Positions 14,248-45,772 of a stretch of 64,000 bases of DNA are shown here, in pieces. This DNA is from Octopus vulgaris (lineage: Eukaryota). The position numbers and the translations under genes were made by a program. Where the stretch lies: the NCBI GenBank assembly GCA_951406725.2, contig OX597826.1, positions 55,924,001 through 55,988,000 on the forward strand. Reading direction: 5' to 3'. The notes beneath the pieces were generated by a model, which ran no database searches, had not been told where the DNA came from, and was given only the letters and a program-made list of their open reading frames with translations. Position 1 is the stretch's first letter. Every line of letters starts with the position of its first letter.

Positions 14248-15060
<813 letters not shown>

Positions 15061-15380
15061 GAGTAAGTGGGAGAGCAATGCTTGCCATCAAAGTGACACA
15101 GGGGTAAAATATACAAAGCCCAGTATACACATCATGACTACCCGTCTGATAAGGACACACCAGGCACATGCTGCACAACCGCATGTGTGTGACATTGCAT
15201 GTGGGGCCCAGTTATAATTTTCTTCAGGTTGAGTAGCCCATCATGCTCAAAAGTTCCCTGAATAAGGGTTATTGAAGGATGTTGAACGAAACATCCATAT
15301 ATCCAAAGGTGAATTATCCAAACCCCCAAGAATTCCTCACAACACATGGCTATGATGCTCCCCCAGTACTTCTGCTCGTG
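15061..15380. mobile_element. Unclassified complex-sequence insertion between (TTA)n and (TATG)n arrays, possibly a retroelement 3' UTR
   Basis: About 320 bp of higher-GC unique sequence sharply bounded by microsatellites; no credible ORF. Confidence 0.35.
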
Positions 15381-18337: not shown

Positions 18338-19125
18338 TTTTCTTATTTCTTTACTACCCACAAGGGGCCACGCACAGAGGGGACAAATAAGGACAGACAA
18401 ACAGATTAAGTCGATTATATTGACCCCAGTGCGTGACTGGTATTTATTTAATCGACCCCGAAAGGATGAATGGCAAAGTCGACCTCGGCGGAATTTGAAC
18501 TCAGAACGTAGCAGCAGATGAAATACCTATTTCTTTACTATCCACAGGGGCTAAACACAGTGAGGACAGACAAGGACGGACAAACGGATTAAGTAGATTA
18601 TATCGACCCCAGTGCGTTACTGGTACTTATTTAATCGACCCCGAAATGATGAAAGGCAAAGTCGACCTCGGCGGAATTTGATCTCAGAACGTAACGGCAG
18701 ACGAAATACCTATTTCTTTATTACCCACAAGGGACTAAACATAGAGGGGACAAACAAGGACAGACAAACGGATTAAGTCGATTATAACGACCCCAGTGCG
18801 TAACTGGTACTTAATTTATCGACCCCGAAAGGATGAAAGGCAAAGTCGACCTCGGCGGAATTTGAACTCAGAACGTAACGGCACATGAAATACCTATTTC
18901 TTTACTACCCACAAGGGACTAAACACAGTGAGGACAGACAAGGACAGACAAACGGATTAAGTAGATTATATCGACCCCAGTGCGTAACAGGTATTTATTT
19001 AATCGATCCCGAAAAGATGAAAGGCAAAGTCGACCTCGGCGGAATTTGAACTCAGAACGTAGCGGCAGACGAAATACCGTTAAGCATTTCGCCCGGCGTG
19101 ATAACGTTTCTGCCAGCTCGCCGCC
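18338..19125 (-). mobile_element. SINE family B (tRNA head + Meta-like central domain), four-unit stack
   Basis: One head GGCGGCGAGCTGGCAGAAACG at 19125 and four 183-184-bp units, each with B box GAGTTCAAATTCC (one copy mutated) and GGTCGACTTTGCCTTTCATCCTTTCGGGGTCGAT..AAGTACCAG. Confidence 0.9.
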
Positions 19126-36152: not shown

Positions 36153-36751
36153 GGCGGCGAGCTGGCAGAAATGTTAGCACGCCGGACGAAATCTTGGCGG
36201 TATTTCGTCTGTGTTCAAATTCCGCCGAGGTCGACATTGCCTTTCATCCTTTCGGGGTCGATAAATTAAGTACCAGTCACGCACTGGGGTCGATGTAATC
36301 GACTTAATCCCTTTGTCTGTTCTTGTTTGTCCCCTCTGTGTTTAGCCCCTTGTGGGTAGTAAGGAAATAGGTATTTCGTCTGTCGCTACGTTCTGAGTTT
36401 AAATTTCGCCGAGGTCGACTTTGCCTTTCATCCTTTCGGAGTCGATAAATTAAGTACCAGTTACACACTGGGGTCGATGTAATCGATTTAATCCCTTTGT
36501 TTGTCTTTGCTTGTCCCCTCTGTGTTTAGCCCCTTGTGGGTAGTAAAGAAATAGGTATTTCGTCTGTCGTTACGTTCTGAGTTCAAATTCCGCCGAGGTC
36601 GATTTTGCCTTTCATCCTTTTGGGGTCGATAAATTAAGTAACAGTTACGCACTGGGGTCGATGTAATCAACTTAATCTTTTTGTCTGTCCTTGTTTGTCC
36701 CCTCTGTGTTTAGCCCCTTGTGGGCAATAAAGTAATAAGAAATCAGAAACA
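36153..36751 (+). mobile_element. SINE family B three-unit stack with 16-bp TSD
   Basis: One head, with junctions AAATAGGTATTTCGTCTG at 36370 and 36554 (184-bp period); TSD AGAAAGCGTGTATAAA at 36137-36152 and 36752-36767. Confidence 0.9.
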
Positions 36752-42868: not shown

Positions 42869-43596
42869 CAACACGACGAGCATCCACACAGTTTCCTTTT
42901 TTTTTGTCTTTTCTGTAATGATCAAATGCGTTCCAGTAGTGACCACCCTGTTTTTTCTGTTTTGTTTTCTTCTTATTTTTTTAGGTATATATATTAACCT
43001 TATCGAGTCCGATAACATAAGTATCAGTCATGCACTGGGGTCGATGTAATCGAATTCTCAAAATTTCTCAAAGCTTTTTCTATTTTATGCTAAAAGAAGA
43101 AAGAATTATTCATAAGGATGGGGATGGAGTTGTATGGAAAAATCCAAGCGGTGCTCCAGCATAGCCGCAGTCAAATGAATGAAACAAGTAAAATAATAAA
43201 TGAATATCTATTCCTTTTCTTTGTTAATTTCCGAAAGAAACGATTCTGAGCTTGAAATATTGGTTTCAATTTTTGGCACAAGGCCAGTAATTTCGGAGGA
43301 AAGTCGATTACATCGACTCCAGTGCTCAACTGTTACTTATTTTATCGACCCTGATATATATGTATATATATATATATATATATATAAACAAGAAGGGTAG
43401 TAATATTATTTACTACCAGGTGCCTAGCACAAAAGACGAATTAGTCATAAGACAAAAATATTATTCATATAGAAAAATATTATTCATGTAGTTATACAAT
43501 TAAGGGCTCCTAAATAAAGATGCCAAGTGCTGGGAACACAAAAAGGGGATGAATTTATCGAGAGTGAAAATCAAAAACGTTTACCGATAACTTTAA

Positions 43597-43674
43597 CAAC
43601 TCGTACCGCGGTTTCTGCTTCTTTCTAGCAAAACACAGAATATGTTTGCTAAGGCCAGCTTCATCAGCGAGTCG
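43597..43674 (-). ncRNA. Type I hammerhead ribozyme (copy 1)
   Basis: Reverse complement of 44538-44615. Confidence 0.85.
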
Positions 43675-44041
43675 CCTGAATTTAATCGAGGTCTGCAGCG
43701 ATGTGGGACTATGTGTTAAACCCGACTACTAGCAGATCTTAACTTTTCAGATCTCTGCGCAGACGCAAAATTTACACGGGCATGCCGGGAAGAATTTTAC
43801 GAATAAATTCATCATGTAGTATGCGAATATAAACAAGAAGGGTAGTAATATTATTTACTACCAGGTGCCCAGCACAAAAGACGAATTAGTCATAAGACAA
43901 AAATATTATTCATATAGAAAAATATTATTCATGTAGTTATACAATTAAGGGCTCCTAAATAAAGATGCCGAGTGCTGGGAACACAAAAAGGGGATGAATT
44001 TATCGAGAGTGAAAATCAAAAACGTTTACCGATAACTTTAA

Positions 44042-44119
44042 CAACTCGTACCGCGGTTTCTGCTTCTTTCTAGCAAAACACAGAATATGTTTGCTAAGGC
44101 CAGCTTCATCAGCGAGTCG
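44042..44119 (-). ncRNA. Type I hammerhead ribozyme (copy 2)
   Basis: Reverse complement of 44538-44615; 445 bp from copy 1. Confidence 0.85.
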
Positions 44120-44537
44120 CCTGAATTTAATCGAGGTCTGCAGCGATGTGGGACTATGTGTTAAACCCGACTACTAGCAGATCTTAACTTTTTTGATTTT
44201 CACTCTCGATAAATTCATCCCCTTTTTGTGTTCCCAGTACTCGGCATCTTTATTTAGGAGCCCTTAATTGTATAACTACATGAATAATATTTTTCTATAT
44301 GAATAATATTTTTGTCTTATGACTAATTCGTCTTTTGTGTTGGGCACCTGGTAGTAAATAATATTACTACCCTTCTTGTTTATATTCGCATACTACATGA
44401 TGAATTTATTCGTAAAATTCTTCCCGGCATGCCCGTGTAAATTTTGCGTCTGCACAGAGATTTGAAAAGTTAAGATCTGCTAGTAGTCGGGTTTAACACA
44501 TAGTCCCACATCGCTGCAGACCTCGATTAAATTCAGG

Positions 44538-44615
44538 CGACTCGCTGATGAAGCTGGCCTTAGCAAACATATTCTGTGTTTTGCTAGAAAGAAGCAGAAA
44601 CCGCGGTACGAGTTG
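44538..44615 (+). ncRNA. Type I hammerhead ribozyme (copy 3)
   Basis: Helix I CGACUCG/CGAGUUG (7 bp); core CUGAUGA 44545-51; helix II GCU..UAGCAAA/UUUGCUA..AGC; GAAA 44597-600; palindromic helix III ACCGCGGU; predicted cleavage GUA after 44608. Confidence 0.88.
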
Positions 44616-44824
44616 TTAAAGTTATCGGTAAACGTTTTTGATTTTCACTCTCGATAAATTCATCCCCTTTTGTGTTCCCAGCACTCGGCATCTTTATTTA
44701 GGAGCCCTTAATTGTATATATATATATATATATTTATTATATTATATTATGTTATATTATATTATACTATATATATATATAAATATATTTATATATATAA
44801 TGTGTATGCATATATATATGTATG

Positions 44825-45565: not shown

Positions 45566-45772
45566 AATACCTATTTCTTTACTACCCAAAAGGGGCTAAA
45601 CACAGAGAGGACAAACAAGGACAGACAAAGGGATTAAGTCCATTATATCGACCCCAGTGTGTAACTGGTCCTTAATTTATCGACCCCGAAAGGATAAAAG
45701 GTAAAGTCGACCTCGGCGGAATTTGAACTCAGAACGTAGCGGCAGACGAAATACCGCAAAGCATTTCACCCA
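45566..45772 (-). mobile_element. SINE family B single unit, 5'-truncated
   Basis: Reverse match to the 184-bp unit; tail followed by GGTATT. Confidence 0.85.

Follow-up and report, generated by a model that had tools for sequence, protein, structure and literature searches.

Within a window of 64,000 nucleotides of Octopus vulgaris DNA (the whole stretch analysed here; assembly GCA_951406725.2, contig OX597826.1, positions 55,924,001 to 55,988,000), we found a locus that is probably one insertion of a young, non-coding, 445-nt hammerhead family, called family A in the following, copied in trans by the reverse transcriptase (RT) and endonuclease of a Penelope-like element (PLE), with circular monomer RNA as the probable template. 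Family A is a real and young family of the retrozyme type, moved by PLEs and previously unlisted as far as we searched, and its class has already been described. The contribution made here is evidence, at the level of single insertions, on what moves animal retrozymes.

Two outward-pointing arms of a 445-nt unit

At this locus (Table 1), the unit has a period of 445 nt and a GC content of 38%, and is numbered from the base after the predicted cut. It is non-coding, as no frame is free of stops beyond 56 codons (all frames, inspected by eye). The tandem and inverted arrangement reported in the initial annotation is confirmed: the two arms are ~99% identical and point outward in the ribozyme sense. 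The units of the left arm differ by two mismatches (43425 and 43525), and the right arm departs from the adjoining left-arm sequence by five substitutions, one of them inside the junction overlap, and carries a 1-nt deletion in its final partial unit. The arms do meet head to head in a T-run region, as initially described, but the joint is not a T-run only, and consists of a short imperfect overlap. The further claim that the 3' ends differ, each stopping at a TATA that merges into the flanking (TA)n, holds for both the left (position 222) and the right (position 111) end.

Table 1. Features of the locus, in window coordinates
Feature	Position	Strand	Remarks
Left (TA)n target tract	43354..43386		Period 2, 16.5 copies
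Left arm	43382..44192	-	811 nt = 1.82 units; starts at unit position 302, D (distal) end at 222
Right arm	44186..44718	+	533 nt = 1.20 units; starts at unit position 23, P (proximal) end at 111
Head-to-head junction	44186..44192		7-nt imperfect microhomology common to both 5' ends, one mismatch
Right (TA)n and AT-rich tract	44715..44800		P-end TATA = 44715-44718
Predicted 8-bp hairpin	43396..43417	-	14 nt upstream of the D end
Predicted hairpin	44687..44706	+	12 nt upstream of the P end; an equally strong fold precedes 12% of unit positions
Type I hammerhead motif	44538..44615	+	Predicted cut after 44608
Type I hammerhead motif	44042..44119	-	Predicted cut after 44049
Type I hammerhead motif	43597..43674	-	Predicted cut after 43604

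No Penelope-type ORF is evident by eye among the 24 frames of at least 200 aa in the window, which are mostly simple repeats. One frame of 251 aa (14376-15131, minus strand) resembles in its second half, by eye, the end of a non-LTR retrotransposon protein, and gave no Pfam match. The window also contains a common short repeat with a 184-nt unit, which forms tandem arrays at 18344-19078 and 36208-36737 and is found as single copies near 43001-43056, 43301-43356 and 45636-45698.

A young and dispersed family

The hammerhead core pattern has 135 exact matches in the genome versus none for a reversed control, and the motif is therefore not a product of chance; a 34-nt segment of the unit has 262 exact matches (control 0). 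A DNA search of the genome with the unit gave 930 candidates, of which the best 40 were scored. Our family-A sample consists of 87 loci, with 10 kb examined around each: 40 are top DNA matches, which biases the sample towards long copies, 27 come from the first 100 of the 135 pattern matches, and 20 (out of 21 new ones) from the first 100 of the 262 segment matches. Identity to the unit is 90-100% for most copies. The median arm measures 1.0 unit and the longest 9.85, and 18/128 arms are longer than two units. Two adjoining outward-pointing arms are present in 40/87 loci, with varied junctions, which makes an assembly artefact an unlikely source of the inversion. Twenty-four of these 40 junctions overlap by 1-17 nt, six are blunt, and ten include 1-18 extra bases. 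Any target-site duplications would be masked by the (TA)n flanks at the loci examined. One locus (L264:4700-5500) displays, between two family-A fragments, an inverted element lying between (TA)n tracts and bearing a CTGACGA motif; it adjoins the 3' end of a third PLE (PLE-3), so that several TA-targeting elements are stacked in one tract.

Near-identical sequence occurs in at least 20 sequencing runs from three organisms, none recorded as RNA and 14 only guessed to be RNA. Contigs of four runs of the guessed type span the unit and its head-to-tail joint, for which genomic tandems account equally well. A contig of run X9, also guessed to be RNA, covers 44455-44634 at a depth of 2.4, and nine of its ten listed changes relative to the unit are T>C; such a bias would be expected if the antisense strand of a hairpin transcript had undergone A-to-I editing.

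A hammerhead motif with a long helix II

Each motif comprises a helix I of 7-9 bp, CUGAUGA, a long helix II, GAAA, and the palindromic helix III ACCGCGGU. The core elements CUGANGA, GAAA and NUH are present and the type I order is kept, with family-wide core variants confined to N7 and H17. The three hammerheads announced in the initial annotation are thus present as type I motifs, but calling them intact went too far, as they are non-canonical: the G10.1-C11.1 pair is present, but bordered on either side by an additional A, and helix II does not close directly on G12, an extra base sitting between position 11.1 and G12. Recognition by the Rfam hammerhead model, which the annotation had suggested as a check, failed, with no match at the gathering score and no hammerhead at E<=10 either, plausibly because helix II is ~45 nt long. 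The fold constrained to the hammerhead has an energy of -17.3 vs -19.3 kcal/mol for the best fold, i.e. 2 kcal/mol above the minimum, and the self-duplex of the helix III palindrome is computed at -14.1 kcal/mol.

Conservation of the core is circular evidence, because the search pattern itself contained the core; this does not apply to helix I and the base of helix II, which covary through compensating changes among family A and the three related families B, C and D described below. In a common subfamily the base of helix II is reduced to 2 bp, and in one locus to 1 bp; both have still spread, and the common subfamily speaks against strong selection on cleavage. The extra 5' base beside helix II (after A9) is usual in PLE ribozymes (PMC4209133), and the passages covered of the PLE ribozyme literature contain no description of the extra 3' base. 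Cleavage is reported for an axolotl family mismatched at the base of helix II, where it is better as a dimer (PMC7229834), and for only 1/9 Xenopus dimers (Li et al. 2026; 10.64898/2026.07.22.740005). A circular fold of the unit has 62% of its bases paired and surpasses shuffled sequences modestly (z -2.0, 4/100 shuffles being as good), and the antisense strand folds equally well. We also observed a subfamily (17 matches, including C14:29228765 and C14:29230397) in which a 2-nt insertion in helix III breaks the perfect palindrome, and which nonetheless makes tandems and inversions. With a tandem unit and two consecutive predicted motifs in its left arm, the locus fits the definition of a non-LTR retrozyme at the level of sequence.

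Paired 3' ends in (TA)n

The 3' ends of the 128 arms fall into two narrow ranges: 69 are of the D type (214-231) and 42 of the P type (103-118), leaving 17 elsewhere. The targeting of (TA)n initially proposed extends to the whole sample, with TA-rich DNA flanking 110/128 arm 3' ends. From P (~111) to D (~222-229) the distance is about 111-118 nt, a stretch that corresponds to the tail of PLEs, which lies between two internal RT start sites, as demonstrated in vitro (PMC11167929). Where both ends of a two-armed locus could be classed, they are P+D in 29/30 cases and D+D in one (p=3e-8 against 0.5); the remaining 10 of the 40 two-armed loci have at least one unclassed end. This count leaves out L039, whose arms are 820 nt apart, and arms with a score <60, among them the short second arm at each of L066 and L067.

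TATA words occur in the unit at 108, 133 and 218, and only about 2-3 arms end at the middle one, which indicates that TATA alone is insufficient to set the start. The hairpin predicted at 43396..43417 shows one compensatory pair relative to family B, and an equally strong fold precedes only 2% of unit positions. In a fixed-window hairpin test, 4/6 P and D sites of families A, B and C were in the top 12%, and 2/6 were not.

Autonomous PLEs and related hammerhead families

The initial annotation proposed that reverse transcription was primed at two TATA sites, from both ends of a (TA)n break. Fixed internal starts of this kind are supported for both arms, and autonomous PLEs of this genome show the same pattern. 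The PLE-like ORF next to L032 (PLE-1) matches RVT_1 (E 0.0015) and GIY-YIG (E 0.00088), both under the Pfam cut-offs; the whole 1312-aa frame has no Pfam match, and a search of solved structures returned nothing relevant. We classify PLE-1 as a PLE on the basis of its predicted domain order and of a cysteine linker resembling the one reported for the Neptune and Nematis clades (PMC8557442). It is very young and has many copies that are 98-100% identical, with open frames of up to 1312 codons and a tandem period of ~4.6 kb. Its copies stop in (TA)n at either of two sites separated by 56 nt. Both sites are paired in 14/14 resolved two-armed loci (counted by hand; three more are unresolved). PLE-2 (L273-L302) is very young, with 775-codon frames and a tandem period of 4271; its tail, read from the examined loci, is ~28 nt long, and its ends are paired in 5/5 loci (counted by hand). 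The genome searches with these PLEs gave 9,941 and 17,699 candidates, 150 of which were scored in each case. Hammerhead-like motifs occur in both elements: in the 3' region of PLE-1 (L171-L182; L175:3763-7698), which has an internal microsatellite, the core CUGAUGCG replaces CUGAUGA, and PLE-2 (L050:880-930) has CCGAAGA in every copy read, with the palindrome AGUACU.

The same rule extends to other hammerhead families. Family B (L128-L136), a sister of family A, has a 436-nt unit with 305/417 aligned bases identical to family A (~70%), and U/U in place of the A/A flanking helix II; its tail is shorter (~99 nt) because it is without a 19-nt internal duplication, and its two ends are paired in 6/6 loci (by hand). 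Family C (L233-L252, L137; 1,379 search candidates) is a 546-nt hammerhead tandem repeat that is nearly unalignable with the 445-nt unit and follows the same rule of two ends and inversion, with pairing in 14/14 loci (by hand), a tail of ~107-112 nt, and three loci with an odd end. The older family D (L204-L229, 18 loci), found with a relaxed short-helix pattern, has a short helix II, the same helix III and little likeness beyond it; several of its copies end in (TA)n ~170 nt past the cut site, and no PLE ORF match was found within 1.5 kb upstream of the motif.

In light of these shared features, we regard mobilisation of family A by PLE machinery as very likely. The 3' ends of PLE-1, PLE-2 and PLE-3, three PLEs among many, have no alignable likeness to the unit (z 0.0, -0.4 and -0.7); together with tails of 28 and 56 nt, and not 111-118 nt, this indicates that the driving PLE is not found among the three tested.

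Nature of the RNA template

The units of a given locus have a common haplotype, differing at family-wide variant sites by 1.0/kb between opposite arms (85 pairs) and 1.9/kb within an arm (183 pairs), compared with 20.1/kb between loci. L122, a mixed and diverged array, is included in these figures and left out of the rare-allele counts that follow. Among rare substitutions at multiply covered sites, 24 are present in all units of their locus, nine in some and 110 in one. The one-unit alleles are rich in C>T and G>A (39/110 vs 3/24 of all-unit alleles, p=0.03) and resemble later genomic mutation; the all-unit alleles comprise 10 T>C vs 3 A>G, and are not significantly different from one-unit alleles in this respect (p=0.29). 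The some-unit alleles are found mainly in L044 and L047, a few recurring in non-adjacent units, which suggests mixed templates or later homogenisation. Seventeen of the 24 all-unit alleles fill at least two units of one arm, with a maximum of 7/7 units across both arms; filling two or more units of an arm in this way calls for either a bottleneck through a monomer or later homogenisation.

The junction at the cut site has no gained or missing bases in 152/152 passages. Moreover, 5' ends lie within 10 nt of the cut site in 5/128 arms versus ~6 expected by chance, and they are spread along the unit (uniformity p=0.24 for the first 99 arms), with no region avoided and none favoured near the cut. 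Clean passages and the lack of a pile-up of 5' ends show that the usual template is not a cut linear monomer, which leaves a circle or an uncut multimer. Between these we lean towards a circular monomer RNA, which is favoured by the single haplotype of an insertion, the clean junctions and the unpiled 5' ends.

The same PLE-driven insertion could use instead an uncut linear multimer from a young homogeneous array, the hammerhead being an inherited passenger. Clean junctions and unbiased 5' ends are equally compatible with such a template, helix II bases are weakened in common subfamilies, and it is reported that in vitro ribozyme cleavage is dispensable for PLE insertion, with ribozyme mutants inserting normally and uncleaved RNA being the main substrate (PMC11167929). 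However, arrays of up to 9.85 units require a means of growth, and the 17 rare alleles that fill two or more units of one arm weigh against a multimer, as does the fact that only two rare alleles cross from arm to arm while being absent elsewhere, the pattern expected of a mixed linear source. Nor is any 5' flank carried along: flank matches at the 34 single-arm loci are mostly to common repeats 77-86% identical, and two short ones (~60 nt) at 92-95% do not abut both junctions. We therefore consider an uncut multimer unlikely, and retain the circular monomer as the preferred template.

Independence from PLE coding sequences

Family A was initially presented as possibly a young retrozyme family, to be judged by genome-wide linkage to an RT/GIY-YIG ORF. 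Its young age, dispersal and independence are upheld: sense continuity with a PLE ORF (RT plus GIY-YIG) was found at 0/87 loci, every unit is preceded by another unit, (TA)n or unrelated DNA, and the pieces of PLEs near family-A loci are separate insertions. The one candidate fusion to a PLE ORF (L271) was rejected, being an antisense insertion that abuts a decayed PLE copy. It is accordingly very improbable that the copies are the 5'-truncated ends (pLTR remnants) of an unsampled autonomous PLE. They do bear all the marks of PLE ends, and the 87 loci examined cover part of the family, 100 of the 135 and 100 of the 262 pattern matches having been listed, but none enters an ORF in sense, the sole abutting case is antisense, and arrays can consist of up to ~10 pure units.

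We give hardly any credence to satellite growth by unequal crossover combined with DNA fold-back, or to an assembly artefact, as the origin of tandem and inversion, since, although local amplification is discussed by Li et al. 2026 (10.64898/2026.07.22.740005), one arm could nest in the other at 19/29 P+D loci and L044 and L047 show a few alleles that reappear in units which are not neighbours, there are fixed and paired P and D ends (29/30) with the same rule in autonomous PLEs, 40 independent inversion junctions, and 10/29 P+D loci where neither arm fits inside the other, which speaks against fold-back copying, and against the self-priming reading of PMC3846280, at those loci.

A model for the insertion

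According to our model, multi-unit copies would be transcribed (RNA evidence for this is weak). Their hammerheads, likely dimeric via the palindromic helix III, may well excise a 445-nt monomer that is ligated into a circle, as the retrozyme literature and the haplotype data lead us to infer. A presumed PLE protein would then cut a (TA)n tract, in line with the target bias observed for the insertions, and each DNA end would prime reverse transcription at P or D through 3-5 nt of AT microhomology; in the observed pattern, one DNA end takes P and the other D. Reverse transcription would continue to a variable extent, passing the cleavage site and coming round to additional units. Head-to-head joining of both 5' ends would follow, often through short microhomology, as is seen in the copies. 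At one-armed loci, it is likely that only one cDNA was retained.

A more specific version, which we put forward tentatively, has one circular RNA read by a pair of PLE proteins from both ends of one (TA)n break, each end being obliged to use a different, structure-marked start. The P+D rule is compatible with the in vitro data of PMC11167929, where start sites have no homology to the cut DNA and do not differ between strands, since under the rule P and D are both open to each strand; what it adds is a constraint on a single event.

Relation to described elements and significance

Family A resembles the animal non-LTR retrozymes (PMC7229834; Li et al. 2026) in its tandem arrangement of a non-coding unit whose length falls in the 150-450 bp range, a single type I hammerhead motif in each unit, arrays from dimers to multimers, co-occurrence with PLEs and a GC content under 50%; like a mussel retrozyme family (PMC7229834), it is also without the typical tertiary-contact bases. 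It differs from them by its very long helix II, flanked on both sides by an additional base. The retrozyme passages covered of these papers do not describe ends at two fixed sites, inverted arms or targeting of (TA)n, and no pLTR relative was found among three PLEs, versus 21 PLE matches reported for the Xenopus families (Li et al. 2026). The hammerhead repeats of the newt and axolotl satellite-2 type (PMC7229834) have a weak palindromic helix III as well, but number ~126,000 motifs, compared with hundreds of copies here.

With endonuclease-bearing PLEs (PMC3846280, PMC8557442, PMC11167929, PMC4209133), family A shares partial tandems, a head-to-head inverted and 5'-truncated arm, a one-ended tail with two internal start sites, an AT or (TA)n target, and a type I hammerhead in which A9 is followed by an extra base and helix III is palindromic. 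A tail on one inverted arm has likewise been described for PLEs (PMC3846280, PMC8557442). Unlike these elements, family A has no RT/GIY-YIG ORF, its tail is 111-118 nt long as opposed to 30-40, and its starts coincide with short AT microhomology, in contrast to the published PLEs. P+D pairing is near-obligate in family A, whereas the portions covered of these papers call the PLE tail optional or often one-ended. The locus resembles a PLE end in behaviour without being an autonomous PLE.

As to novelty, the initial annotation suggested that the family may be undescribed, and we found no paper in the open literature on family A or on a counted P+D rule (Repbase and Dfam, outside the scope of the search, may hold it as an unnamed repeat); the combination of tandem, inverted and two-end form, however, is a published PLE signature (PMC3846280, PMC8557442, PMC11167929). 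PLEs have been named strong candidates as movers of animal retrozymes, the circle as transposition template being left open (PMC7229834), and Li et al. 2026 back mobilisation by PLEs through co-occurrence and pLTR kinship. How PLEs form tandem and inverted insertions is called undefined in PMC8557442.

Family A is a transposon family with no sign of a host function. Copy after copy, this protein-free ribozyme repeat bears the PLE end signature, in a genome that also contains intact and very young PLEs following the same rule. The P+D rule, which is nearly strict, and the evidence for a single haplotype merit further work. A 445-nt RNA with two mapped start sites offers a small substrate for tests of circle versus linear templates and of one site per end. 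If the more specific version put forward tentatively above is true, the one-site-per-end rule would be general for PLE insertion (five families here), and these insertions would be direct genomic footprints of animal retrozymes transposing as circles on PLE machinery.
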